Shown one piece after another: positions 1 through 17,699 of a stretch of DNA of 64,000 bases (the stretch's first letter is position 1; the number at the start of each line of letters is the position of its first letter). Location of the stretch: NCBI GenBank assembly GCA_964363635.1, contig CAYIIU010000001.1:5112-69111 (forward strand), read 5' to 3'. This DNA is from an uncultured archaeon. GTDB taxonomy: Archaea > Iainarchaeota > Iainarchaeia > Iainarchaeales > VGJJ01. A program made the position numbers and the translations under genes. The notes beneath the pieces were generated by a model that ran no database searches, had not been told where the DNA came from, and saw only the letters and a list, made by a program, of their open reading frames with translations.

Positions 1-86
1 CAACCACCACAGCGCCCCAACACACACTCTCAACACCTACCATTTCATCGAGCACGTATGTTCCGCCCGCGCCGCCCGCTCAACCG

Positions 87-1316
87 ATGGCAACCGAAAA
101 ATTATGGGAGAAAGGAATACTCGCAACGGTGGACGCACGTTTAGCGCAAATGGAACGCTTGAAGAAAGAACTCGATGACGTGATGGAAAAACGAATTCAA
201 ACGCATTATGATTCCATGGAAAAAAAATTGGAAGCACTATTTGATGCGCAACGGCAATTATACAAGTTCAAAATGGACGCGGAATTGAATGCCAAAACGA
301 AAGAAGTGGAAGATATTTTCGACCAAAAAATAAATGAAATAAAATCATTGAACTTGAGCACGCAGGAAGACTTGCAGCGAATCAAGGGACAAAAAATGAT
401 TATTGAAGATTTGGCCAAAGACTTGAGCGACAAATCCATTGCCCTTGATGCCACGAAAAAAGCCATCATCGATGACACGGGACAAAAATTAGAGGATTTA
501 CAGGAAAAAGTGGATGACTTGGTGGGAGAAACCGAAACACGCATGAGGGAAGTAGAAAACCGCGCGTCAAAAACACTTGAACTCGAGGAAAAAATAACAT
601 CCAACTTGAGTGCGCAGATGGAAGAGCAGGCCAACAAGATTGTCGAGGCAAAAGTGGAAGATTTACGGATGGAAATCAAAAAAGAAATTATCGAATTGAA
701 AAAATTGGGAGCGGATTTAGCATCGAAGGACATTCAAGGCGTCGTCGAGGAATTCAAAGAGATGAATGAGAAGATGGAGAAGACCAAAAAAGGAATTGAC
801 GAACTTGTTGAGAGTAAAACCCGCGAAGTGGATAAGATGATTGAGACCAAATTAGTGGATGTGGAAAAAATTGTCAACAACAAAATGGAGTCTCTTGTAA
901 AAGAGAAAGAACAATCATTCTCCAAAAAAGTGGACACGCAATCCATGGATGTGAACTCGCTCAAAAAAGAACTGGCCCAAAAACTGCTTGAAACCGAAAC
1001 ACGCATGCAGGGGTTGGACGGATTTCAGAGACAGTTTTTGGAAACACTCAAAAAAAGCAACTTTGAACGGGAAGAATTAATGGGAATTTTGAAAAAGAAA
1101 ATTGAAACATTTGACGTTCGAGCGGATGAAAAAGTGGCCATCATCGACCAACGCTTGAAACAATTGGACGCAGTTGTTGGCGAGCTGGGAACGCTGCTCA
1201 CGCAATGGAAGGGGCAGCAGGCGCAGAATATGGCGAACGCGAACATTGCTGCCAGCCACGCAAACGACGCACCCACTCCCGCGAAAAAGGGCGGATTAAA
1301 CCCATTCAAGAAGTGA
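87..1316 (+). CDS. Hypothetical coiled-coil protein, 409 aa. It is E/K-rich with heptad repeats throughout.
   Basis: The long ORF has periodic charged/hydrophobic repeats such as EKKLEALFDAQRQLYKF and LEEKITSNLSAQMEEQANKIVEAKVEDLRMEIKKE. I recognise no catalytic motif. Confidence 0.5.
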   Translation: MATEKLWEKGILATVDARLAQMERLKKELDDVMEKRIQTHYDSMEKKLEALFDAQRQLYKFKMDAELNAKTKEVEDIFDQKINEIKSLNLSTQEDLQRIKGQKMIIEDLAKDLSDKSIALDATKKAIIDDTGQKLEDLQEKVDDLVGETETRMREVENRASKTLELEEKITSNLSAQMEEQANKIVEAKVEDLRMEIKKEIIELKKLGADLASKDIQGVVEEFKEMNEKMEKTKKGIDELVESKTREVDKMIETKLVDVEKIVNNKMESLVKEKEQSFSKKVDTQSMDVNSLKKELAQKLLETETRMQGLDGFQRQFLETLKKSNFEREELMGILKKKIETFDVRADEKVAIIDQRLKQLDAVVGELGTLLTQWKGQQAQNMANANIAASHANDAPTPAKKGGLNPFKK

Positions 1317-1378
1317 ACCCAAAGGAAAATACGCATGACAAACCAGATGCTTTTTATGCCACAAATCAAAAACAGGGT

Positions 1379-2239
1379 ATGGCATCATCAAAGTTAAGAC
1401 GGAAAGTACGCGGACCATTATTGGTTTGGAGGGCCTTTCAGCTTTTCTCTCAAAAAAAACCTTCACGAGCAGTTTATGAAGAATTAATTAAAGAGCACCC
1501 TGAACTGGGAATTCAGACTCCTGAAAAAATGGAACAATACATGAAAAGGCTCATTGGACTTACATCGGGACAAAAAATAGAACACATTTTTGCAGGAAAA
1601 AATTCAAGAGAAACTTGGGAACAATTCATTGTTTACTTGAATGCGCACAGTCGAAAAAGAGAAAAAATAGTTGCAGCGTTGAAGGGAAGACCGCTCGCGC
1701 GTGATCTGCGGGAAAAAATTGCGGCTGCCAATCGGACACCTGAAAAAAGAGCCATTGTTCGCGCGGCAAACACCGGACGAGAATTAACACCTATGGAAAG
1801 CGCCAACCGCTCGCGCGCACTCAAAAAAAGATGGGAACAAACCATTGCAAAAAACCCAGAGGCGGGAAAAGTGGCTGCTGCACATGCCAACCGAGCCCAA
1901 ATTCTTACCAGACGCCAACGATTGCGCCAAGCTATTAATGAAGGAACAATCCAAGAGGGAGAAACCACTTTTGGGACAAACACAAGAGAAGTGATTGCAG
2001 GAAAGGAGTTTTCTCCCGAAAGAGAAATGTCACGACGGGAAATTAGAAATCTGTTGAATGAAGAGGCAAGGAGATTAAGTGGGATCAAGCGACAAATAAT
2101 CCTAGAACATTTCTTTGAAGAGAAATCCCTTGAAACAATTGCAACCGAGACGGGAATAGGATTGGAACGTATTCAAAAACATTACCGAGAGGCCCTCCAG
2201 ATATTATCCCGGAAATGGAATGTCCGCGCGTTGGTTTGA
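1379..2239 (+). CDS. Basic protein with a C-terminal HTH resembling sigma-70 region 4
   Basis: The C-terminus reads LSGIKRQIILEHFFEEKSLETIATETGIGLERIQKHYREALQILSRK. This matches the region 4 pattern L..RER.VL..RF......TLEEIG..LG...ERVRQI...AL.KL. The N-terminus is K/R-rich. I chose the start at ATG 1379, which is in frame with ORF 1205, to avoid a 112-nt overlap with the upstream gene. Confidence 0.45.
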   Translation: MASSKLRRKVRGPLLVWRAFQLFSQKKPSRAVYEELIKEHPELGIQTPEKMEQYMKRLIGLTSGQKIEHIFAGKNSRETWEQFIVYLNAHSRKREKIVAALKGRPLARDLREKIAAANRTPEKRAIVRAANTGRELTPMESANRSRALKKRWEQTIAKNPEAGKVAAAHANRAQILTRRQRLRQAINEGTIQEGETTFGTNTREVIAGKEFSPEREMSRREIRNLLNEEARRLSGIKRQIILEHFFEEKSLETIATETGIGLERIQKHYREALQILSRKWNVRALV

Positions 2240-2334
2240 CCACTCCTACGCACCCGCTTTAAAAGGATTCTGAGGGCGTTTTGATACGTCAAAGGGGATT
2301 TGCTTTTTTGATCGAACTTTTTAAAAAAAAGTTC

Positions 2335-2406
2335 GGGCGCTTGGCGCAACGGTAGCGCGCTTCCATGGCATGGAAGAGGTTGGGGGTTCAAATCCCCCAG
2401 CGTCCA
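2335..2406 (+). tRNA. tRNA-Ala (anticodon GGC)
   Basis: The 7-bp acceptor stem GGGCGCT/AGCGTCC carries a G3:U70 wobble pair, the alanine identity element. The anticodon stem CTTCC/GGAAG flanks the loop ATGGCAT, and the T-arm is TGGGGGTTCAAATCCCCCA. CCA is not encoded. Confidence 0.85.
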
Positions 2407-2543
2407 TAACCGGAAACCTCCGGTGGTGCGGCAGCCTTTTAGAAAAAGGCTGGCGAAAATTTCGATGAACCCTTTTCCAAAGGGTTCAAGGACTAGGAGG
2501 GATTTTCAATCCCTCGGTAGGCCAATTAGTAGTAGAGGCAAAT

Positions 2544-2614
2544 GCGGATGTGGTGCAATGGTAACATCAGAGCCTTCCAAGTTCTGGACCTGGGTTCGAT
2601 TCCCAGCATCCGCA
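2544..2614 (+). tRNA. tRNA-Gly (anticodon TCC)
   Basis: The acceptor stem is GCGGATG/CATCCGC. The anticodon stem AGAGC/GTTCT flanks the loop CTTCCAA. The T-arm is CTGGG-TTCGATT-CCCAG. I could not fold the D-arm cleanly by eye. Confidence 0.75.
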
Positions 2615-2615
2615 T

Positions 2616-3506
2616 TTATTCTTTTTTTGAAGCCGAAATGCTTGAATAGTACGCGCCCCACAATCCACCATTGTCACCTAATTGCGTTGCAACGATTGGA
2701 GGAACAGGATGCAACGTAAATGGTTTGATTTCATCCGCACTCGGAATAATTTCGGAAAATTGAGATACGCCAATGCTTCCCATAATAATTATCTTATCCA
2801 CCGCAAAAACATTGAGCATCGTTCCAATTCCACGTGCATTCACCGCGCGTGATTTTGCAACAATGGATCTTGCTTTATCATCTCCTTTTTTCGCAAGAGC
2901 AAAAACTTCCTCGGGAGAAATAAGATGATTGAATACTTTTTCGGTTTGCATTTGAATTCCTTTTCCTGACGAAAATGAGAACCAACACCCTTTGTGATCC
3001 AAAACACATGCGGGCGCACCTGAATAAGTGTCTAAAATCATGTGTCCGAATTCACCCATCGTTCCTTCCACAAGAGTTTTATTCCATACTAACCCCGCGC
3101 CCATGCCCGTGCTAATGGCAAGGAGGTAGAATGAGTCCAATCCTTTTCCATATCCGAGGAAAAACTCCGCTTTAACAGCGAGCTTCAGATCGTTTTCGAT
3201 TTTAACGGGATTTGGAAACGCACGAATGAGCGACTCGAGGGAGATGGATGACAAAATTCCTAAGGGACCTGAATTGAGGAGAATATTTCCTTGAATCGGA
3301 CCGGGAAGGCCGATGACGGTGCACTCCACGCTTGTTTTTTTCGCAGCACCACGAATTTCAGTTGAAAGATTTTTGATTAACAAAACAAGAGATGGAAAAC
3401 CAGCTTGCGTGCTGGGGATTATTTTCTTCGCGAGAATCTTTTCATTCTCGATAATAGCGCCGCGGATGGATGTCCCACCGACGTCAAAACATTCGATGAG
3501 GGGCAT
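2616..3506 (-). CDS. ROK-family sugar kinase (glucokinase-like)
   Basis: The N-terminus has DVGGTSIRGAI, the actin-fold phosphate-1 motif. ISTGMGAGLV and GEFGHM are ROK signatures. Confidence 0.8.
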   Translation of the reverse strand: MPLIECFDVGGTSIRGAIIENEKILAKKIIPSTQAGFPSLVLLIKNLSTEIRGAAKKTSVECTVIGLPGPIQGNILLNSGPLGILSSISLESLIRAFPNPVKIENDLKLAVKAEFFLGYGKGLDSFYLLAISTGMGAGLVWNKTLVEGTMGEFGHMILDTYSGAPACVLDHKGCWFSFSSGKGIQMQTEKVFNHLISPEEVFALAKKGDDKARSIVAKSRAVNARGIGTMLNVFAVDKIIIMGSIGVSQFSEIIPSADEIKPFTLHPVPPIVATQLGDNGGLWGAYYSSISASKKE

Positions 3507-3512
3507 AATCGC

Positions 3513-3749
3513 CTACGGTGAAATCAATAGGATGTTGTCGCCGCGAAGAATAATCTTCCCGTACTTTGTCTTCGGCTGGCCGTTTTCCCAACTCTCGGCG
3601 CTTTCCATGACAATGTTCATGTGCACATCAAATGCTTTCAACACGCCGCGGAAGGACCACCCTCCCTTCAATTCGACAAGGACGTTTTTTCCAATGCTTT
3701 CACTCAACAAATCGAATGGTCGAGAGGCGTTGGGGTTGTTGGTAGTCAT
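3513..3749 (-). CDS. Sm-like archaeal protein (SmAP/LSm)
   Basis: The 78-aa protein contains LKGGWSFRGVLKAFDVHMNIVM, matching the Sm1/Sm2 pattern. Confidence 0.75.
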   Translation of the reverse strand: MTTNNPNASRPFDLLSESIGKNVLVELKGGWSFRGVLKAFDVHMNIVMESAESWENGQPKTKYGKIILRGDNILLISP

Positions 3750-3783
3750 GGGTATCTATCACTCCTAATCGTAAAATAATCAA

Positions 3784-6027
3784 TCACACTTTCATCTCTT
3801 CCATTCCTTTTCCGGAAGGAGAACTTTTCTTTCCTCCGCCGAACAAGCGGGCGAAGAAACCGAAAATGGAACCAAAGAAACCTGAATGAGTTTTATTCTC
3901 GTCGAAATTGACAGGAAGACCGGCAAGGCGCGCGGCGAGCTTCTGAATTTCAATGGAAGACTTTGCCTGCGTATTGCGAAGCATTACGGGAACGGCTTTG
4001 TCGCGCTGAAACGAATGACGCATTTCATCATCGTAGGGCACCGTTGCATATACTGGGAGTTCCATCATGCGCGAAACTTCATCCTTGCCAATTTCACCTT
4101 TTTCAAAACGAACCATGTTGAGGACAATTCCCAAGGGTTTGTTTCCCAAACGCTGCGCGACGATTTTTGTTTTCAACACGTCTGCGATGGATGGAGAATC
4201 GGGCGTGGCGATGAGCAAGGATTCTTCCGTGGATGCAATCGTGGCGAGCACGGATTTTTCAATCCCTGCGGGACCGTCCAACAAAACAAAATCGAACTTA
4301 GGTTGAATGGTTTTGATGACCGTTGCCAATCTGTCGGCGTCGACGCGGCGATAATTTTCGAGTGATAATCCGGAAGGAATAAATTTCAGCCCATTGGGGC
4401 CATCGTAAATAGCATCATGGATTCCCGCTTCGCCGAGCAAAACATCGTGTAATGTGATTGGAGAGGATTGCATTCCCAACAAGAGTGAAAGATTCGCCAT
4501 CGCAATGTCCGCATCCACTAAACATACGGACACGCCGCGCTGCGCAAGGGCGATTCCTAAATTAGCACAAATGGATGTGTTGGAGAGAATGATTCCCGAT
4601 GCGTGCGTGAAATGGCCACCGTATTCAGAAACCTGGAAGTCGTAAACATATGGACGATTGTAATCAATTCGTTTCACATCGTCCACGCGTCGAAACTCCA
4701 CATTGTCTTGAAGCATTTGCTCCAACCACGAAATGAGTGGGTGCTGGACATTCATTTCTTTGTAAACATTCAAATAACGCTGCACCGTTTGTTTGGACAG
4801 CGCATAGTATTCCCATTCGTATTCATAGACCATTTGCTTGGTGCATCCCAGCTTCTTTTCAATTTGCAACGCAGTCAAATCGGATTCCTCTCGGATTTGT
4901 TTCAATAATTTTCCAACTGGATACACATCGATATTCGTATTCTCCTCTGCGGGACTCTGCAATTGATCAAATAAGCGGTTGGCCTTTTCCTGATGAGTAA
5001 AACCAATGTAATCGGAATATTTTTGTGCATTTTGTCCGGTAAGATATAAGCGCCAATAGGGCTGCTTCTCTGTCATTTTACCATTTGTTGCCATTTTGTA
5101 CGTTAGGGTTATTTGAGATGAGATGCCAAAACGGTTGCGCAATAATGACGCGACTTGGAACGCAAGCTTCTTTGATTTCGTATCATACTCGATCTCTCGG
5201 CGGTCAATATTCACTGTTCCATCGGTATCAAATAGACCCCGAATGAATGCAGCAATTGACGGATTGCTGGAGTTAAATAATGCAGTCGGAACTTCTTTAT
5301 CGCCGGCCAATGCCATTTTTACGCCGTACTTTTCGAATAGTTTGCGAATGGGCTCTTTTTTGTAAACGCTCATAACAAATGAATTACGATCCTTGTTCTG
5401 GAAAACCTCTCCAAAAACTTTTAAGTACGATTCACGAATGTTTCGAACCATGTCGGGCGGAGTGGCAACCACAGAAATGCCATTCTCTTTCATATTGCCA
5501 TCACCAATCACATATCCTAACCATTGAGCAACATACACAGGAACACTATCTTCGTTTTCGATATCGTGCGTGTTTTTGTACAAAAGCAAATAATCTTTTT
5601 TGGAAACGATTTCGTCCGCGCGAACTTTTTGCAACTTCCCCGAGCGCATGACGACAAATTGATGCTCTGGAGTGACGGAAACATCACCCGCTGCACAACA
5701 GATGGTAAACAATTCCTTAGGAGCGGGCTTGCGCATCAATGCAAAAGGTTTATTTTGAAAGTGGGTCACTTTCTGATTTTCTTCGGAAAACAAAAAAGAA
5801 TTAAGTTGGAATTCAGACGGAGAATCAATCACTTCAAAAAACTCTTCTGAACCGTCCGTCAGTTTGACAGCGACTTTCTTCACGGTTTGCGGACTTTTTT
5901 CGATTAAAGAGTCAATGAATGGACCGATTTGAATAACATCCCCATTTGACAAAGAAATGTATTCATCGTAGGATTGACTTTTCCCTACTCCACCCTTTCC
6001 TGAAACGATTGCTATACTTCGACCCAT
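3784..6027 (-). CDS. MinD/ParA-family ATPase whose deviant Walker A box is interrupted by an intein
   Basis: The N-extein is MGRSIAIVSGKGGVGK. The C-extein begins TSICANLGIALAQRGVSVCLVDADIAMANLSLLLG and continues with LLDGPAGIE, which is MinD-like. A 467-aa insert carrying a LAGLIDADG motif lies between them. Confidence 0.75.
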   Translation of the reverse strand: MGRSIAIVSGKGGVGKSQSYDEYISLSNGDVIQIGPFIDSLIEKSPQTVKKVAVKLTDGSEEFFEVIDSPSEFQLNSFLFSEENQKVTHFQNKPFALMRKPAPKELFTICCAAGDVSVTPEHQFVVMRSGKLQKVRADEIVSKKDYLLLYKNTHDIENEDSVPVYVAQWLGYVIGDGNMKENGISVVATPPDMVRNIRESYLKVFGEVFQNKDRNSFVMSVYKKEPIRKLFEKYGVKMALAGDKEVPTALFNSSNPSIAAFIRGLFDTDGTVNIDRREIEYDTKSKKLAFQVASLLRNRFGISSQITLTYKMATNGKMTEKQPYWRLYLTGQNAQKYSDYIGFTHQEKANRLFDQLQSPAEENTNIDVYPVGKLLKQIREESDLTALQIEKKLGCTKQMVYEYEWEYYALSKQTVQRYLNVYKEMNVQHPLISWLEQMLQDNVEFRRVDDVKRIDYNRPYVYDFQVSEYGGHFTHASGIILSNTSICANLGIALAQRGVSVCLVDADIAMANLSLLLGMQSSPITLHDVLLGEAGIHDAIYDGPNGLKFIPSGLSLENYRRVDADRLATVIKTIQPKFDFVLLDGPAGIEKSVLATIASTEESLLIATPDSPSIADVLKTKIVAQRLGNKPLGIVLNMVRFEKGEIGKDEVSRMMELPVYATVPYDDEMRHSFQRDKAVPVMLRNTQAKSSIEIQKLAARLAGLPVNFDENKTHSGFFGSIFGFFARLFGGGKKSSPSGKGMEEMKV
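4579..5979 (-). mobile_element. Intein with a LAGLIDADG homing-endonuclease domain, inside the MinD-like ATPase
   Basis: The insert begins with Ser straight after GKGGVGK and ends in Asn followed by Thr (ILSN|TS). A block reading FIRGLFDTDGTVN is present. Splicing would restore GKGGVGK-TS-ICANLG. Confidence 0.7.
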
Positions 6028-7761: not shown

Positions 7762-9519
7762 ATGCGACGCACGCCAGTACCTATTTTTGTTTTAGCTGCT
7801 TTTTTGATTATTTTTTCCACTGGAGCGTGGGGATTAGTTTGCGGAGACACGAGTGGAGCGCTTCCTGCAGGAGCGGTTTCACTTTTTAGAATTGATTCGG
7901 TGCACAATGCACATGCGGAAGAAGCAGCAGGCACGACGTACAATAGAGTTGTTTACTGCGCGCCCAGCGTAGGAGAACCTGCACTCGTTGCAAATGCGGC
8001 TGGCGGAACAGAACTGTTACACCTAAATACCCCCACCAGTGCGCATGCCGAATTTCCAACAGGAACAAATTACACTATACCAATTAGATTGGGCACGAAT
8101 AATGGAACACAAGTACTGGTGCTAATGGTAGATGCTGCATCAGACACCTGCACAACACACAATGCCTCGGGCATCACCTACCAAGAAGTAGTTCGACTCG
8201 CACGCCCCACCAATTCTCATTTGCAAAGCAACAGCTACAATGGCCCTAGTTCGCTTTACCCGCGCCGCGTGTGCGTGTCAGTAAATATGAGCGGGGGAAG
8301 CGTGCCGGATAATGATATTGTTCAAACAACCGTAAGTGGAACGCCTGCAACGGTTGCAATGAACGGCGCAATAAGCTCCAATATTTTAACACGAAATTTA
8401 GTAGCGGGCGATACAGACTATACTGATATTTCTACTATAACAGTTACAACAATGTGTCGAATTGGAACAGGAAATTGTGATGCTATTTCAAGTTCGCCAT
8501 CAAAATACGACGCATATTTGAATGAACTAACATTGATGAGCGCAAATGGTTATTCTGGAGCACTCATCCCGGCATCCCTCGACATTGTACAATATGGGTC
8601 GAACTCGCAGAGCGGATTTGTGGGCGCCATGAGTGCACTTTACGGTGCAAACAAAATAACATCTACAGGGCAATTAGATACAATAACAAATGCATCTAAC
8701 GACACGCACACGAAAGTGTATAACATCAATCCAGCAGCACAATTACTCACGCCCGGGCAATATCGAATATTTTCGCTCACTTGGAGAGCAGATTTTGATT
8801 ATCAGACTAACCCAAAAGTTGAAGTGGATTATCAAACATCAAACTTTAGCGAAACAACTTTTTCAGTAACTGGATTTTGTGGGGATGGATACATTGACCC
8901 GACAAGCACACCTATTGAAGTATGTGAACCGCCAGGATTTCCAGGAGGGTGCCCAGCAACCTCAACATGCAACAGTACATGCGATGCATGCTTATCAAGC
9001 GGGCCTGGGACTTCAGGAACGGCCGGAGACGTGTACGTGCTGAAGAATATTGTCTTCCCGAACGTGTACAACGGAAGCGATATTGTCGCGAACATCACCA
9101 TCGAAAACAAAAACATGACGGCGGCATCCGACCCCATCCAAGAAAAGCTCCTCATCACAATTCGCGACTCACAGGGGGTTTTAGATCCGATTTGGAATCA
9201 ATATCCTATTGACATCCTTAGCTTTGGAGGCGTGTCCAAAAAGACGATTCAAGTCACCATCCAAACAGGTGGAGTGGCACCATTTTTGACACCGGGAAAA
9301 ACATACACGCTCTACGCGACGGTGCAGAAATTTATAGACACCATTCCACCCATCGACGCTACTGAAACAATCACCGCCAACAACAGCGCGTACAAAACAT
9401 TTACCACACTCAATGCGCCCCAAACGTTTGCCATCCCCGATTCGCCTTGGTGGATGAGTATACTTGTGTTCGGAATGATTGCGGGATGGTTATTCGTCTC
9501 CGCTCGCAAGAAAAATTAA
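7762..9519 (+). CDS. Secreted Ser/Thr/Asn-rich cell-surface protein with a C-terminal membrane anchor
   Basis: The N-terminus carries a signal peptide, MRRTPVPIFVLAAFLIIFSTGAWG. The C-terminus has the TM helix WWMSILVFGMIAGWLFV followed by RKKN. The composition is low-complexity and rich in T/S/N. Confidence 0.55.
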   Translation: MRRTPVPIFVLAAFLIIFSTGAWGLVCGDTSGALPAGAVSLFRIDSVHNAHAEEAAGTTYNRVVYCAPSVGEPALVANAAGGTELLHLNTPTSAHAEFPTGTNYTIPIRLGTNNGTQVLVLMVDAASDTCTTHNASGITYQEVVRLARPTNSHLQSNSYNGPSSLYPRRVCVSVNMSGGSVPDNDIVQTTVSGTPATVAMNGAISSNILTRNLVAGDTDYTDISTITVTTMCRIGTGNCDAISSSPSKYDAYLNELTLMSANGYSGALIPASLDIVQYGSNSQSGFVGAMSALYGANKITSTGQLDTITNASNDTHTKVYNINPAAQLLTPGQYRIFSLTWRADFDYQTNPKVEVDYQTSNFSETTFSVTGFCGDGYIDPTSTPIEVCEPPGFPGGCPATSTCNSTCDACLSSGPGTSGTAGDVYVLKNIVFPNVYNGSDIVANITIENKNMTAASDPIQEKLLITIRDSQGVLDPIWNQYPIDILSFGGVSKKTIQVTIQTGGVAPFLTPGKTYTLYATVQKFIDTIPPIDATETITANNSAYKTFTTLNAPQTFAIPDSPWWMSILVFGMIAGWLFVSARKKN

Positions 9520-12164: not shown

Positions 12165-15100
12165 ATGGGTATGGAAAGAGAAAGTTTTGGATTCGAGGAA
12201 GCGAAAGGCTTCCACAAGCCGGAAGAGACGGAGATAGCGCAGACGCCCCTCAAGGGAGCCGCAAACCCCTTCATCCCCAAATTCGAAGAATTCTTTTCCA
12301 CTCAAGAGTATAAGAAAAAGATCGAGAAGCTCGCCCACGAATACCCGCAAAACAAATCGCTGATTGTGGACTACAACGATGTGGATTCGTTTGATTATCA
12401 ACTCGCCGAAGAATTGCTCGCCCATCCTGATTTGTTGATTGAAGCCGCGGAACTGGCCGTGCAAAAAATTGAAGTGCCAGTGCTGCAAATGGATAAATTT
12501 TCTCCCAATGTACGTTTTCGGGGATTGCCCAAAGACAAGTCCCCCCTCGTGCGGGACATTTCCGCGCAGCAATTGGGAAAACTATTCGCCGTGGAGGGAG
12601 TTATTAGACAAGTCACCGAAGTCATGCCTAAATTGAAAAGCGCCACATGGAGATGCAAGCGCTGCGGAAACCAATACATCTTGGAGCAGGACGGGCACCA
12701 ACAGCGCAAGCCCGCATTCTGCAATTGCAAACACCGCGACTTTGAATTGGTTCCCGAAGAAAGCACGTTCGTGGACTATCAAAAAATTCAGATTCAAGAA
12801 CCCTTAGAAATGCTCAAAGGAAGCGAGCAAGCCGTGAATTTGGATGTGTACATTGAAGACGACTTCGTGAATCGCGTGTATCCGGGAAACCGCACGCAGA
12901 TTACGGGGATTTTGAGACTGTATCCGCCCAACAAGGACAAAAAGAATGTCTATGGAAGATACTTGGAAGCCATTCATCTGGAAGAAACGGAAAAAGAATT
13001 CGAAGACGTTACCATCAACGAAGAGGATGAAGTGAAAATCAAAGAAATCGCCAAGAATCCTAAGATTTATGAGATACTCGTACAATCGATCGCCCCCACG
13101 ATTCATGGACACGAAATCGTGAAAGAATCCATTTCGCTTCAGCTTTTTGGAGGAGTAAAGAAGACACTCCCCGGGGATATGAAAATCCGCGGAAATATTC
13201 ACGTTTTGCTTGTGGGCGATCCTGGCACTGGTAAAAGTATCCTCCTGCAAGCGACGGACAAGATTGCGCCGAAGAGCGTGTATGTGAGTGGTAAAGGAAG
13301 CACGAGTGCAGGATTATGCGTTGCACCTGACTCACTTATTTTGAATGATAATGGTTTCAAATCGATTGAAGAGTTTGTTGAAACAAAATTCGACAATCAA
13401 TTGCAGCGGGAAGAATTGCCCGGAGCATTTAGCAATGAATTCATGGGACAGACGCACAGCCTCACTCCACAATTGGATTTCTCAGTTCAACCTGTTGAGA
13501 AAATCTGGAGAATTAAAGCTCCGCCAAAGATGATTCAATTCACTACTAAAACAGGAAGAGAATTGAGCCTTACACCCGCAACCTCGCTGATCCGACTCAA
13601 AAGTAGTAAAGCGGAATGGATTGAAGCAAATGAATTACAAGCAGGAGACTATGTGGCAGTACCTCGCTTTTTGCCTGAAGGACAACGAAAAAATATTCCA
13701 ACCTTCACCGTATTGCTGGATGACCCGTACATCAAAATTGGAAATCCATTAGCGGAATGGATGAAAGAAATAATCGCGAAGCTCGTTCCGAAATACGGAA
13801 GCAAACAGGCCATCGCCAAAAAAGTGGGAAAAAGCAGGGACACTATCTATGCGATCCAAAACCCTAAATTCCACCACGGATGGGAACTGCAGAAAGTAGT
13901 TGGATTAGCACGCGAAGCAGGATATTCCGATAATCAAATCGCCCAAAAGATAACAACCCTATTCATTCGACATGGCTTTACAAATCAAATCCCCACCTAC
14001 CTAGATGACCCTGATGTCACCTACCTCGTTGGAGCCATTATCGGGGATGGAAGCATGGAAGATGCAGAAGATTGCACGACCATTCGTCTCTGCGGGAACG
14101 ATCCGCAGATACTTGATCGATGCACCAAAATATTGCATGATAAATTTGGAATCATTCCTGAAAAGGAGAAGAATGCGGATAGGGAGAGAGTCCCCTCCTT
14201 ACGAATGAGTTCCCGTGTTTTAGGAAAAATTCTTCGCGCGTATGGAATGCGACATGAGAAAAAAGAAAACGCACTGTCTCACATGGCAACAGAGATGCCT
14301 AACCATATTCTTCGAAATTTACTCCAAGGATTATTTGATACAGACGGATACGCAGATGATTCTAAAACAGGTGGAAAAAATGTTGGAATAAGTTCTGTCA
14401 GTCCTGAACTAATTAAAACAATTCACCTCTCGCTACTCAAATTTGGGATTATTTCCAAAAAGAGATTCCGTAAGAGAGCAGGAAATGTCGCAATCGGAAA
14501 AAAAATCACGGTAATAAGCCGAAACGATCAATACTCCATCGAAATTTATGGGAAAAAGAATATGGAGCTTTTCAGAGAAAAAATAGGGTTTGGTCTCGCC
14601 CGAAAACAAGAGACTCTGGATAAAATAATCAACAGCATACATGAAGAAAGGACAAATATTGATTTTATTCCGGAGATTCAAGAGGCACTTCAAACAACAA
14701 ATGCCAAAAGCCAATACAAAAAAGGAAAAGTTCGGATTTCCCGAACAAAATTGAAGGAATTAATGAAGGATCTGGAAGATTGTTTCTTGCAAAAATTGGG
14801 AAACGCCAATGTCCTTTGGGACCAAATCAAAGTGAAGAAAGAGTTTTCGCCCGATTATGAATACGTCTATGATATGACCGTTAGCGGCAGCCATAACTTC
14901 ATTGCGAATGGGTTTTACGTCCATAACACGGCTTCCGCCGTGAAAGATGATTTTGGTGAAGGCGGATGGACGCTCAAAGCCGGTGCGCTCGTGCTTGCGT
15001 CCGGCGGAATGGTTATGGTAGATGAATTTGATAAGATGGAATGCTTGATGGGAGACACGCTCGTCTGCTCCGAAAACGGAGAACTGAAACCCATTCAAAC

Positions 15101-17699
15101 CATTTTTGAAGAAGTCAAAAAAGAAGGAAGAATCGAAAAGACAAAAAAAGGAACAAGTGTGCGCGGCATCCAAAATAGATTCGTTCTTTCAATGGACAAA
15201 AACTTGAAAATGGTCAAACGAAAAGTGTTGGCCGCACATGAGTATTCCCATGATGGAAGAATTTTGGAAATCCGACTTCAGAGCGGAGAAAAAATAAAAG
15301 CCACTCCTAATCACCCTTTTTTTACTTCTACCGAAAAAGAAGTCAAGACTATTAAAGCAGGATTCTTGAAAAAAGGAGACTTTGTGCTAGTCCCTGCGCG
15401 CGTCCCTAATGAGGATGGGGGGAAATCAAATGAGAAACTTTCCCGCATGTATGGATATTTAGCGGGGGACGGAAACGTTACTTACAACCCGCCTGAAAAC
15501 TACTTGGTCCGATTTACGAATAAGGATGCAGACCTCTTGGATGATTTCAGCATATGCTGCGAAAACACGTTTGGTAAACCCACCATTTACCCGAGCGAGA
15601 TAAGGGCGGGAGGATTAATGTGTACGCGCATCAATGGACAAGCGCACATTGACTTCATTGCTGAACACGCTCCCGGACTCATGGAGAAATTTGAGCGCAA
15701 ATACACTCCGACAAGCATCTTTCATTCCTCTCGAAACACGTCCAATTACCTGCGAGGACTCTTTGACTCGGAGGGAAGCGTGGACATGAGACACCAGCAG
15801 ATCAGCTTTGCGTCAACGAGTGAAAGATTGACCTTGGAAGTTAAAGCACTACTATTGAAATACGGCATTCTCTCCCAAATACAGCACAAGAAACCAAAGG
15901 GGAATAAAATGACGGCATACGTGCTTCGAATCACCGACGCCGATTCGCTCCATTCATTTTTAAAAAAAATTGGATTCACCAGCCGACGAAAATACAAAAA
16001 ACTCGAAACATTCATTCAACCTACTAAAGAAAGGAGCGTCATCAATGTAATCCCAAATATTGGGGGGCTTCTCAAAGAAATTCGCATACCATTGGGTTTG
16101 CATCAAAAGCAATGCGGGATAAATAAAACGACCTACAACAATTTTGAAAAGGGGGCCGCCAACATAAGCATAAAAAATGCCCAGAAAGTATTGACGGCAT
16201 TCAAAAAAACAGCGGCGCAAAAGAACGTTTCAGATGAAACAAAAGAGAGAATGAAGTATTTCGAAGCCCTCGCTATGGGAGACGTCCGCTGGAGAAAAGT
16301 CGATGAAATAAAAGAAGCCAGCATTTCTTTGGATACTCACCTAAGCTATCAGCGTACCCACCAGATAAATCAAATTTTAAAAAAAACTGGAATGAAAAAA
16401 GTCTCCCATCAAAAAATGATAGAGAGAATTCCAATACTTATTCAAGAAATAGAAAAGGCCAACGAAACTATTCAAGAATATGTTGACAAAGAAAAGCATT
16501 CGTGGAGTGAAATAAAGGAAGTCATCAGAAAAAACACAATTAGCCACTCTGAAATAGCCAAAGAAGTGGGAGTGAACCAAGCCACTTTTACTAGGTGGGC
16601 GAATCAAAATACAAAACCGCCGCTGAATGCATTGCAGCAGACGGCCCAAGCGGTAAAAAAAAGATTAATTAGAAGAAAACAAACAACTGAAAGTCTGGTA
16701 CAGCTATTAAGTGAGACAATCGCTAAACCAACCGCCAAAATATATGATTTGACTATCGAAGGAAGCCACAATTTCATCGCCAACAATATTATCGTACACA
16801 ACTCCGAAGACCGGTCAGCGATGCATGAGGCGATGGAACAAGGACAAGTGAGTGTAGCGAAAGCCGGAATGGTCACGCGATTCAAAACGGACACTTCAGT
16901 ATTAGCCGCGGCCAATCCAAAACTTTCGCGCTTTGACACGTTCAAACCATTTTTCGAACAAATTGACTTGCCCCCCTCTCTCATTTCGCGATTTGATTTA
17001 TTTTTCATGATTCGCGACACGCTCAACAAGGAACGAGATGAAATGATTGCCGCGCACATCTTGTCCTCGCATAAAGTGGGGGAGCAGATGCTGCAGATGC
17101 AGCGCGCGGGAAAGAAGGGGTACACGGATGAAATGCTGAAAATGGAAGAGAAAGTCACGCCCATTATTGACATCGAATTGTTGCGAAAATACATATCCTA
17201 CTCGCGACAGCGCGTGTTTCCCATTTTGAGTTTAGAGGCCACCCAACTGATTCAAGACTTTTACGTTGGTTTACGTGATCAGGGAAGACAGCAGGGGAGC
17301 TATGCAGCAACGGCGAGACAATTGGAAGGACTCGTACGATTGGCGGAAGCCTCTGCACGCGTACGTTTGAGTGACGAAGTGACGCAAGAAGATGCGGAAC
17401 GTGCCATGCGACTCGTGCGCGCTTCGTTAGAGGATGTGGTGAAAGACCCCGAGACGGGAAGAATTGACATCGATATTGTTACCAGCGGACAAACACAAAG
17501 TTCGCGCGACCATATGCGCACCATCACGGACATCATCAAGGCGAAAAGCAAGGAAATGGACAAAGTCCCCATTCAAGATGTCGTTGCGGAAGCGTTGTCG
17601 AGAGGAATCGAAGAAGAGAAAGTGCGCGATTTGATTACCAAACTCAAGAAAGCGGGAGATATTTACGAACCCTCGCACGGTTTCCTCAAATCGGCGTGA
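12165..17699 (+). CDS. mcm: MCM replicative helicase interrupted by two inteins
   Basis: Extein motifs include a Zn finger CKRCG...CNCKH, the Walker A box GDPGTGKSILLQ and the Walker B box MVMVDEFDKM. They also include the sensor SEDRSAMHEAMEQGQVSVAKAG and the arginine finger VLAAANP. The extein totals about 720 aa. Confidence 0.9.
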   Translation: MGMERESFGFEEAKGFHKPEETEIAQTPLKGAANPFIPKFEEFFSTQEYKKKIEKLAHEYPQNKSLIVDYNDVDSFDYQLAEELLAHPDLLIEAAELAVQKIEVPVLQMDKFSPNVRFRGLPKDKSPLVRDISAQQLGKLFAVEGVIRQVTEVMPKLKSATWRCKRCGNQYILEQDGHQQRKPAFCNCKHRDFELVPEESTFVDYQKIQIQEPLEMLKGSEQAVNLDVYIEDDFVNRVYPGNRTQITGILRLYPPNKDKKNVYGRYLEAIHLEETEKEFEDVTINEEDEVKIKEIAKNPKIYEILVQSIAPTIHGHEIVKESISLQLFGGVKKTLPGDMKIRGNIHVLLVGDPGTGKSILLQATDKIAPKSVYVSGKGSTSAGLCVAPDSLILNDNGFKSIEEFVETKFDNQLQREELPGAFSNEFMGQTHSLTPQLDFSVQPVEKIWRIKAPPKMIQFTTKTGRELSLTPATSLIRLKSSKAEWIEANELQAGDYVAVPRFLPEGQRKNIPTFTVLLDDPYIKIGNPLAEWMKEIIAKLVPKYGSKQAIAKKVGKSRDTIYAIQNPKFHHGWELQKVVGLAREAGYSDNQIAQKITTLFIRHGFTNQIPTYLDDPDVTYLVGAIIGDGSMEDAEDCTTIRLCGNDPQILDRCTKILHDKFGIIPEKEKNADRERVPSLRMSSRVLGKILRAYGMRHEKKENALSHMATEMPNHILRNLLQGLFDTDGYADDSKTGGKNVGISSVSPELIKTIHLSLLKFGIISKKRFRKRAGNVAIGKKITVISRNDQYSIEIYGKKNMELFREKIGFGLARKQETLDKIINSIHEERTNIDFIPEIQEALQTTNAKSQYKKGKVRISRTKLKELMKDLEDCFLQKLGNANVLWDQIKVKKEFSPDYEYVYDMTVSGSHNFIANGFYVHNTASAVKDDFGEGGWTLKAGALVLASGGMVMVDEFDKMECLMGDTLVCSENGELKPIQTIFEEVKKEGRIEKTKKGTSVRGIQNRFVLSMDKNLKMVKRKVLAAHEYSHDGRILEIRLQSGEKIKATPNHPFFTSTEKEVKTIKAGFLKKGDFVLVPARVPNEDGGKSNEKLSRMYGYLAGDGNVTYNPPENYLVRFTNKDADLLDDFSICCENTFGKPTIYPSEIRAGGLMCTRINGQAHIDFIAEHAPGLMEKFERKYTPTSIFHSSRNTSNYLRGLFDSEGSVDMRHQQISFASTSERLTLEVKALLLKYGILSQIQHKKPKGNKMTAYVLRITDADSLHSFLKKIGFTSRRKYKKLETFIQPTKERSVINVIPNIGGLLKEIRIPLGLHQKQCGINKTTYNNFEKGAANISIKNAQKVLTAFKKTAAQKNVSDETKERMKYFEALAMGDVRWRKVDEIKEASISLDTHLSYQRTHQINQILKKTGMKKVSHQKMIERIPILIQEIEKANETIQEYVDKEKHSWSEIKEVIRKNTISHSEIAKEVGVNQATFTRWANQNTKPPLNALQQTAQAVKKRLIRRKQTTESLVQLLSETIAKPTAKIYDLTIEGSHNFIANNIIVHNSEDRSAMHEAMEQGQVSVAKAGMVTRFKTDTSVLAAANPKLSRFDTFKPFFEQIDLPPSLISRFDLFFMIRDTLNKERDEMIAAHILSSHKVGEQMLQMQRAGKKGYTDEMLKMEEKVTPIIDIELLRKYISYSRQRVFPILSLEATQLIQDFYVGLRDQGRQQGSYAATARQLEGLVRLAEASARVRLSDEVTQEDAERAMRLVRASLEDVVKDPETGRIDIDIVTSGQTQSSRDHMRTITDIIKAKSKEMDKVPIQDVVAEALSRGIEEEKVRDLITKLKKAGDIYEPSHGFLKSA
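13317..14927 (+). mobile_element. MCM intein 1, 537 aa, with a LAGLIDADG endonuclease
   Basis: The insert starts at Cys after GKGSTSAGL and ends YVHN before TASAVKDD. It contains LVGAIIGDGSMED and LQGLFDTDGYADD. Confidence 0.85.
15042..16802 (+). mobile_element. MCM intein 2, 587 aa, with a LAGLIDADG endonuclease
   Basis: The insert starts CLMGDTLV after DEFDKME and ends IIVHN before SEDRSAMHEAMEQ. It contains YLAGDGNV and LRGLFDSEGSVD. Confidence 0.85.

Follow-up and report, generated by a model that had tools for sequence, protein, structure and literature searches.

What can be the function of an archaeal protein that ends in a helix-turn-helix (HTH) domain resembling region 4 of bacterial sigma-70 factors? 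This question is raised by a gene at positions 1379-2239 of a stretch of DNA of 64,000 nucleotides from an uncultured archaeon of the Iainarchaeota (hereafter the window). A preliminary description of this stretch had pointed to the domain and presented it as unexpected in Archaea. Our own answer, held with modest confidence, is that the gene product (hereafter the HTH protein) is a sequence-specific DNA binder of the homing-endonuclease type that carries no nuclease, and that would serve as a regulator or repressor or else persist as a selfish remnant. The gene and the parts of its product are the following.

1379..2239, forward strand: gene for a basic protein of 286 amino acids (aa), from the ATG at 1379 and with the stop codon included, as given by the listing of open reading frames (ORFs)
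1379..1654, forward strand: N-terminal region, aa 1-92, predicted to be all-helical and of no recognisable family
1655..1843, forward strand: degenerate NUMOD3-like repeat region, aa 93-155 (REKIVAALKG, RPLARDLREKIAAANR, GRELTPMESANRSRALKKRW)
1844..2032, forward strand: basic helical segment and then a flexible linker, aa 156-218
2033..2218, forward strand: four-helix HTH domain of the sigma-70 region-4 type, aa 219-280, with the recognition helix GLERIQKHYREAL

An alternative GTG start at 1313, which overlaps the upstream stop codon (GTGA), would lengthen the protein to 308 aa, and this form was chosen by another gene caller in the ENA assemblies. Identical copies of the HTH protein are found in NCBI and ENA assemblies, and the window sequence is also present in Hainich groundwater assemblies from 0.1-um filters.

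The C-terminus quoted in the preliminary description is indeed encoded by ORF 1379-2239 (...RRLSGIKRQIILEHFFEEKSLETIATETGIGLERIQKHYREALQILSRKWNVRALV; ...LSGIKRQIILEHFFEEKSLETIATETGIGLERIQKHYREALQILSRKWNVRALV), and its proposed likeness to sigma-70 region 4 was borne out: the C-terminal HTH is of the sigma-70 region-4 type by three independent routes, namely Pfam, a profile search of the PDB and structure comparison. First, the Pfam model Sigma70_r4 (PF04545) matches the whole protein at aa 232-276 (E 7.4e-6) with 25.8 bits, the curated cut-off being 24.1 bits, and it is the top match of the C-terminal 77 aa taken alone (29.8 bits). Sigma70_r4_2 is the runner-up and stays below its own threshold, while GerE (PF00196), TrmB, Lrp, NUMOD1 and HTH_10 gave no Pfam match at E<=10 on the isolated C-terminus. 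Hence the LuxR/GerE alternative, which had been suggested for inspection together with the two sigma models, finds no support, and neither does an assignment of the TrmB/Lrp type lacking a region-4 signal. Second, a three-sequence profile of the HTH was compared with PDB sequences. Sigma factors aligned at region 4 make up 25 of the 34 listed matches, and the eight best are all sigma factors, e.g. the extracytoplasmic function (ECF) factor SigE (E 6.5e-4), RpoS and SigA; SigB is the exception in position, as its best stretch (chain residues 183-231) lies upstream of SigB region 4. The alignments span the classic L-x-x-x-x-R-x-[IV]-[IL]...F...E-I-A...[IV]...A-L-x-x-L pattern. The full HTH protein, compared directly with PDB sequences, gave a chance-level ParB/Spo0J match alone (E 0.15).

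Third, an AlphaFold2 model of the HTH protein was computed, with a mean predicted local distance difference test score (pLDDT) of 78, values of 77-91 in the HTH and of 88-95 across aa 91-170, and values <50 in the linker at aa 197-216. When this model was compared with the PDB by Foldseek, sigma factors accounted for 48 of the top 50 matches. Isolated region-4 structures are among the best fits, e.g. SigF region 4 (8jzt_A; template modelling (TM) score 0.87, root-mean-square deviation 1.2 A over 55 columns) and SigD4 (3vfz; TM 0.81), and SigE region 4 bound to -35 DNA was recovered as well (2h27; TM 0.72). In BFVD, a viral structure library, phage sigma factors and region-4 proteins that stand alone head the matches, and a PHROG sigma factor family matches the HTH domain with E 4e-6.

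Is the HTH protein then a sigma factor? No Pfam match to region 2 (Sigma70_r2) was obtained at E<=1, and no region-3 signal was detected. The NCBIfam sigma models gave 12-31 bits, compared to cut-offs of 43-385 bits, and these matches are confined to the C-terminal third, ending in region 4; even the broadest sigma superfamily model reached 31.5 bits, its cut-off being 42.9. Because sigma region 2 is lacking and the NCBIfam matches fall far below their cut-offs, the protein is, by these scores, not a sigma factor. A less strict version of the idea would be a sigma-like or RNA-polymerase-associated initiation factor or activator that uses its region-4 module as bacteria do. The similarity to region 4 is genuine and extends to an ERI motif in the recognition helix. 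However, besides the missing regions and the low scores, the host is archaeal: the window encodes an Sm/LSM protein, an intein-bearing MinD/ParA ATPase and an MCM helicase that contains two inteins and a winged helix of archaeal type, and the closest genomes, found with the LSM protein as anchor, belong to an 'uncultured archaeon' and to metagenome-assembled genomes (MAGs) of Candidatus Iainarchaeum / Diapherotrites, i.e. to DPANN archaea. In addition, the gene is dispensable, as it is missing from the closest relatives, and archaeal Tfx/EnfR regulators with a region-4-like HTH work as ordinary DNA-binding regulators (PMC10570040). We therefore regard a sigma-like role as extremely unlikely.

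The same regulators also change how surprising the domain is. Tfx/EnfR proteins are mostly archaeal and their HTH was assigned to sigma-70 region 4 by Pfam and by crystal structures (PMC10570040), while InterPro region-4 signatures were already reported for archaeal LuxR-like and bacterio-opsin-activator-like proteins (PMC5413776). Thus the preliminary description overstated its case, and the original point of interest, that a sigma module should occur in organisms lacking sigma factors, loses much of its force. Nor is the TBP/TFB model of archaeal transcription called into question, given that regulators with a sigma-4-like HTH had been described in Archaea before. The practical value lies chiefly in annotation: proteins of the kind described below should not receive the label 'sigma factor'.

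If the HTH is of a known type, what is the rest of the protein? It had been called highly basic and of low complexity. Basic it certainly is, with an isoelectric point of 10.7 and a net charge of +25, but the middle part appears to be a degenerate repeat array and not simply low-complexity sequence. What had been missed altogether is that this middle part, together with the sole relatives of the protein, appears to tie it to the NUMOD3 modules of homing endonucleases. A word-indexed search of 5.8 billion protein clusters with the whole HTH protein as query returned only the query itself. Apart from a fragment of the gene itself, an exhaustive phmmer search of 1.84 billion representatives yielded P0004 (263 aa, E 2.3e-7) as the one true relative. 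It is composed of a NUMOD3 repeat array (Pfam PF07460, E 1.2e-11) and, behind it, the same HTH, which exceeds the Sigma70_r4 threshold. With a profile built from the two proteins, P0005 (262 aa, E 7e-44), equal in layout, was recovered first and >100 NUMOD3 proteins after it. P0004 and P0005 contain 3-9 clear NUMOD3 repeats (about nine each) and share the C-terminal HTH; their repeat parts match PHROG 'homing endonuclease' families with E 4e-11 and 2e-19, and tblastn with P0005 leads to annotated phage homing endonucleases.

Among the 120 profile hits scanned by Pfam, NUMOD3 was assigned in 119, the window protein being the sole failure. GIY-YIG domains occur in at least 48 of these hits, SegE-type GIY-YIG domains in six and HNH-type domains in about 13, whereas Sigma70_r4 was assigned in two of the 120, the window protein and P0004. 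At the level of the repeats, aa 93-155 (REKIVAALKG-RPLARDLREKIAAANR...GRELTPMESANRSRALKKRW) align with repeats of P0004 (DKIAAALKG-RTLPEDVKRKI...GRRHTPAELVKMSESMKRHW) with a BLASTP E value of 2e-11. Furthermore, a custom hidden Markov model (HMM) of NUMOD3, the repeats of which follow the pattern G-[KR]-x-x-S-x-E-x-[RK]-x-K-[IM]-S-x-A, was built from 348 repeat units of other proteins. It gave 10.4 bits on the window protein, a score matched by 1 of 2000 shuffles, and 12.4 bits on the mid-region, which none of 2000 shuffles matched. Upstream of the repeat region, the MAFFT alignment sets TPEKM/QKI..G in aa 45-92 opposite the TRQKM/DKI..G repeats of the relatives; the correspondence is weak, and the second half of aa 1-92 may consist of further decayed NUMOD3-like repeats. 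The stretch of aa 156-218 is partly missing from the relatives, where the alignment has a gap.

The relatives also tell something about distribution. P0005 is encoded between a nitroreductase fragment and ProRS, i.e. at a locus different from that in the window and with no coiled-coil gene as neighbour, and its contig shares ProRS at >=90% identity with a MAG of Candidatus Iainarchaeum sp., in which the gene is present as well. Thus, the family of NUMOD3 repeats plus sigma-4 HTH comprises three distinct sequences and has so far been traced only to Iainarchaeota. Peptide patterns, derived partly from poorly aligned columns, led to no confirmed locus with family relatives in GTDB genomes, JGI metagenomes or IMG/VR. 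No tblastn match of the window protein was found in 50,697 phage genomes, and NUMOD3 and HTH HMM scans of all ORFs of the window and of 41 loci revealed no paralogues. Two candidates were discarded. Apparent region-4-type HTHs in phage endonucleases (P0005 matches in Bacillus phage YungSlug and Synechococcus phage S-H34) came from matches that ran past the endonuclease ORF into the neighbouring gene. P0003 (65 aa), taken as a diverged relative, and the apparent pseudogenes of its locus L003 (an ERZ2470813 contig of 0.48x coverage, positions 1546-5460) reflect many short gene calls caused by assembly frameshift errors. L003 represents the same strain as the window and differs from it by 64 gap openings and 14 mismatches in 4 kb; because it is a low-coverage assembly of the same strain with many indels, neither P0003 nor L003 can be used for ratios of nonsynonymous to synonymous substitutions (dN/dS).

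We conclude that a NUMOD3 array joined to a Sigma70_r4 HTH, with no nuclease, is a rare fusion, of which both modules and the design principle are known. We found no paper describing this fusion, and its occurrence in DPANN archaea is new.

The kinship to homing endonucleases makes it necessary to ask whether the protein itself might cut DNA. On the whole HTH protein, no nuclease domain was matched in Pfam, NCBIfam, PHROG or PADLOC. If it were an active free-standing homing endonuclease, its N-terminal 92 aa would have to form a novel nuclease domain. Such an arrangement has some appeal, since an N-terminal domain of no known family, NUMOD3 and a C-terminal HTH follow each other in the order found in homing endonucleases with GIY-YIG or HNH domains (PMC3664794), the gene is polymorphic in its presence at an intergenic site beside conserved genes, and the genome is rich in intein-borne endonucleases. 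However, the N-terminal region shows no GIY-YIG, HNH or other nuclease signature, has no Pfam match at E<=10 and contains no Cys. AlphaFold predicts nothing but helices (pLDDT up to 89), and Foldseek gave no PDB match with E<2; folded alone, the N-terminal half yields a poor model (pLDDT 64) and no fold match. Moreover, P0004 and P0005 begin directly with NUMOD3 repeats, so that they have no extra domain and no room for a nuclease. On the basis of these models, the N-terminal ~90 aa would be a helical, family-less addition to the layout of P0004 and P0005, and we consider active cleavage very unlikely.

As separate observations, the same genome is rich in homing-endonuclease elements. The MCM helicase (12165-17699, forward strand) reaches 1844 aa because of its two inteins, both with a LAGLIDADG homing endonuclease and one also with HTH_3. 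The MinD/ParA-type ATPase (3784-6027, reverse strand) is interrupted in its P-loop (GKGGVGK|S...N|TSICANL) by an intein of ~464 aa with LAGLIDADG_3 and HTH_3. Since the 96% identical orthologue of the closest relative, L007, is an intein-free ORF of 290 aa, this intein represents a recent, lineage-specific invasion.

How did the gene reach its position? The features around it are the following.

1..1316, forward strand: gene of a conserved Iainarchaeota coiled-coil protein, cut by the window start, with an internal ATG at 87 and a full length of 496 aa
1317..2245, forward strand: lineage-specific inserted segment of ~0.93 kb, from the coiled-coil stop codon to the tRNA-Ala upstream element (alignment)
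1351..1358, forward strand: TATA-like TTTTTATG, read from the sequence, its centre ~25 nt upstream of the ATG at 1379
2246..2334, forward strand: conserved intergenic element of ~90 bp upstream of tRNA-Ala (TTTAAAAGGATTCTGAGGGCG...TTTTTTGATCGAACTTTTT), from the alignment with L007, L008, L009 and L011
2335..2406, forward strand: tRNA-Ala (GGC), by ARAGORN and Rfam
2543..2615, forward strand: tRNA-Gly (UCC), by ARAGORN and Rfam

The two tRNA genes confirm what the preliminary description had seen nearby. In the syntenic Iainarchaeota loci the order MetRS ... MinD-LSM ... tRNA-Gly/tRNA-Ala-coiled-coil is kept, with L011 showing only tRNA-Ala, and the content of the junction between coiled-coil stop codon and tRNA-Ala varies.

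Window: 1018 bp, with the HTH gene
L007 (11321-11416): 96 bp, empty
L011: 131 bp, empty
L008 (10881-11904): ~1.0 kb, with an unrelated 309-aa ORFan on the same strand
L009 (1963-2966): ~1.0 kb, with an unrelated 236-aa ORF on the opposite strand that has a signal-peptide-like N-terminus

By tblastn and HMM scan, no homologue of the HTH protein is encoded in the syntenic loci L007, L008, L009 and L011. DNA homology between window and L007 stops inside the end of the coiled-coil gene and restarts at window position 2305. In the alignment, the insert begins immediately behind the coiled-coil stop (1317) and ends at ~2245, just right of the HTH stop. This right boundary is formed by the element 2246-2334, which is conserved across five genomes and probably represents the promoter or leader of the tRNA-Ala/tRNA-Gly unit. 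Rfam has no family for it; as further observations, it shows the TATA-like TTTAAAAGG / TTTTTAATGG and then a short palindrome (CGAACTTTTT...AAAAAGTTCG). The junction of coiled-coil gene and tRNA-Ala is thus a hotspot of gene turnover in Iainarchaeota, with three mutually unrelated ORFs in three genomes, and the HTH gene is accessory cargo of this variable hotspot, a strain-level insertion. Its GC content at third codon positions (GC3) of 0.355 is the lowest among the 22 genes tested in the window. The TATA-like TTTTTATG at 1351-1358 would, judged from general archaeal promoter geometry, be a possible promoter of its own, giving a leaderless or nearly leaderless mRNA.

The preliminary description had offered three origins, a horizontally acquired regulator, a provirus gene or a repurposed DNA-binding domain. 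Acquisition and repurposing come close to what we find, given the lineage-specific insertion and the lowest GC3. The provirus found no support, and we consider it unlikely that the gene belongs to an integrated virus, plasmid or other mobile element targeting the tRNA-Ala locus. Such an origin would agree with the position beside tRNA genes, the lineage-specific occurrence and the atypical composition, and phages often encode sigma factors and standalone region-4 proteins. At L009, moreover, that locus's different insert is flanked on both sides by a direct repeat of 19 nt, which copies the upstream element of tRNA-Ala (AAAAAG[TC]T[TC]GATCAAAAAA). However, the insert in the window is a single gene of ~0.93 kb; it is accompanied by no integrase, and the search for terminal repeats or target-site duplications around it found chance-level repeats only and no partial tRNA duplication. 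Viral metagenomes had been proposed as a place to look; neither IMG/VR nor the phage genomes mentioned above yielded a relative, and P0005, the other family member traced to a genome, sits between housekeeping genes. Neither the neighbours nor the cargo ORFs of the hotspot had relevant matches in Rfam, PADLOC or PHROGs.

The closest neighbour on the left, described before as a heptad-repeat ORF of 409 aa at 87-1316, is real, yet that ORF is truncated by the window start: an identical ENA contig gives the full length of 496 aa. The protein comprises a small N-terminal domain, a Pro/Thr-rich linker and ~400 proline-free residues rich in E, K and L (a stretch of 375 aa lacks proline). It belongs to no Pfam family and matches coiled-coil regions of SMC/JetC weakly, and its global heptad periodicity is only mildly above that of shuffled sequences; it may be a cytoskeletal or chromosome-organising protein. 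Two observations can be added, that the gene of ~500 aa is Iainarchaeota-specific and always adjoins tRNA-Val (window 1-1316; L001 147-1637; L007 11414-13006), and that its N-terminal domain carries the motif MPNQEAIIENIRKLE.MGLHGEELI.QLD.LGIPR.QAERW.REA.

Could the two proteins form a functional pair, as had been suggested? Their genes lie on the same strand with a gap of 62 nt, and the alternative GTG start of the HTH gene overlaps the coiled-coil stop codon. However, the expectation that the pair is conserved elsewhere failed: the coiled-coil gene is kept at 90% identity in L007, 79% in L008, 64% in L009 and 54% in L011 (tblastn at the syntenic loci), and the HTH gene is absent from all four. 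Two of these relatives carry another ORF at the site, in one case on the opposite strand, and P0005 lacks a coiled-coil neighbour. Being kept in four syntenic relatives devoid of the HTH gene, the coiled-coil protein is a conserved gene of the lineage and not a dedicated partner of the HTH protein, and we give a functional pair next to no credence.

On the other side of the tRNA genes, two further observations were made. A gene for a ROK-family kinase (2616-3506, reverse strand) adjoins tRNA-Gly and lies between LSM and tRNA-Gly in the window, in L007 (73% identity) and in L010 only; it has a low GC3 (0.40) and no tblastn match in L008, L009 and L011. Farther away, a 585-aa ORF (7762-9519, forward strand) belongs to no Pfam family and shares 28-46% identity with its syntenic counterparts, compared to mostly 70-93% for its neighbours in the closest relatives, down to 58% in L011. 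Its product is fast-evolving and possibly surface-exposed.

How would the HTH protein work? For the preferred reading, a nuclease-free DNA binder of the homing-endonuclease type, the following mode of action can be envisioned. The sigma-4-like HTH would read a short motif in the major groove, as sigma region 4 reads the -35 element. The basic helices that precede it would follow the adjacent minor groove, as they do in I-TevI, I-HmuI and I-BmoI, whose DNA-binding domain is composed of NUMOD3 minor-groove helices and an HTH (PMC3664794, PMC1564403). In this manner an extended asymmetric site would be occupied and not cut. The protein might then act as repressor or regulator, possibly of its own promoter, or, alternatively, it might be the persisting DNA-binding remnant of a free-standing gene resembling those of homing endonucleases, i.e. 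a selfish element.

Several points weigh against this interpretation. Neither a target site nor an operator-like repeat nor a regulated neighbour could be identified, and repeats around the gene are at chance level. The Pfam model of NUMOD3 (PF07460) is not significant on the window protein, and because of this its repeats are to be called clearly degenerate; their assignment to NUMOD3 draws on one distant homologue and on a home-made HMM with modest scores. The family of three distinct sequences, in which window-type copies are near-identical, is too small to reveal purifying selection or conserved DNA-contact residues. The AlphaFold model derives from a shallow alignment of 24 sequences and has a predicted TM score (pTM) of 0.38. 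Finally, the polarity of the insertion, gain versus loss, is deduced from four relatives only.

In a rival history, a gene once rich in NUMOD3 repeats, similar to those for P0004 and P0005, would have inserted at the hotspot and become a decaying, functionless remnant whose repeats drift while its frame is still open. The window protein alone among the 120 profile hits fails the Pfam NUMOD3 model, the gene is lineage-specific with no relatives in related genomes, its GC3 is atypical, and the hotspot exchanges its cargo genes. On the other hand, the ORF of 286 aa is intact and identical in several independent assemblies, the HTH still exceeds the Pfam threshold, AlphaFold is confident over the repeat-derived helices (pLDDT 88-95), and a plausible TATA box of its own is present. 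Decay is hence a possibility we take seriously and yet find doubtful.

A more far-reaching proposal concerns the family as a whole. The window protein, P0004 and P0005 might form an Iainarchaeota family in which a NUMOD3 array was fused to an HTH of bacterial or phage sigma-4 origin and kept in the absence of a nuclease. Its members would either regulate transcription at specific sites or act for a separately encoded nuclease as targeting or immunity factors, and they would appear to move between chromosomal hotspots. This proposal is speculative and, in our view, rather improbable at this stage. If it were true, an archaeal version of the 'domesticated endonuclease plus sigma-4 HTH' design represented by WhiA would have evolved independently in this family. 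Whatever its function, the gene resides in a DPANN archaeon whose genome is tiny and about whose regulators hardly anything is known, and its position marks a hotspot of gene turnover beside the tRNA pair of Iainarchaeota genomes.

Which known systems does the HTH protein resemble? In its C-terminal four-helix domain, which fits regions 4.1-4.2 by sequence and by predicted fold, it is similar to sigma-70 factors and to standalone phage region-4 proteins. It differs from sigma-70 factors by the absence of sigma-2 and sigma-3 domains, and its host has no bacterial core RNA polymerase. Tfx/EnfR regulators, which bind promoter regions, share with it the archaeal host and a basic HTH assigned to sigma-70 region 4 (PMC10570040). 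However, in Tfx the HTH is N-terminal and followed by the acidic alpha+beta TFX_C domain, while in the window protein it is C-terminal and the rest is NUMOD3-like; in Pfam, TFX_C gave no match to the whole protein at E<=1 or to its three parts at E<=10.

Closer in architecture are homing endonucleases of GIY-YIG or HNH type, such as I-TevI, I-BmoI, I-HmuI and the seg/mob enzymes of T4, which are modular and, comparable to the window protein with its NUMOD3-like region, place NUMOD3 before a C-terminal HTH. The manner of occurrence is comparable too: free-standing endonuclease genes occupy intergenic regions and show presence/absence polymorphism, and segB of T4 is inserted between tRNA genes (PMC2988022). 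In contrast to these enzymes, the window protein has no nuclease domain and its repeats are too degenerate for Pfam NUMOD3, and its host is a DPANN archaeon instead of a phage, a bacterium or an organelle.

The last system to be compared is WhiA, a true transcription factor in which a scaffold derived from a homing endonuclease is combined with an HTH that mimics region 4 of sigma-A (PMC10243135, PMC3240954). The likeness, a catalytically dead endonuclease-derived part followed by a C-terminal HTH of sigma region-4 type (PMC10243135, PMC3240954), is conceptual only: no Pfam match to WhiA or LAGLIDADG was found on the HTH protein and there is no sequence relationship. WhiA uses a LAGLIDADG scaffold where the window protein has NUMOD3-like repeats, and it is ancient and conserved in Gram-positive bacteria, whereas the window gene is strain-specific. 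Nevertheless, if the DNA binding of the HTH protein is specific, it would provide, after WhiA, the second independent case in which parts of a homing endonuclease and a sigma-4-type HTH were combined into a binder that does not cut.

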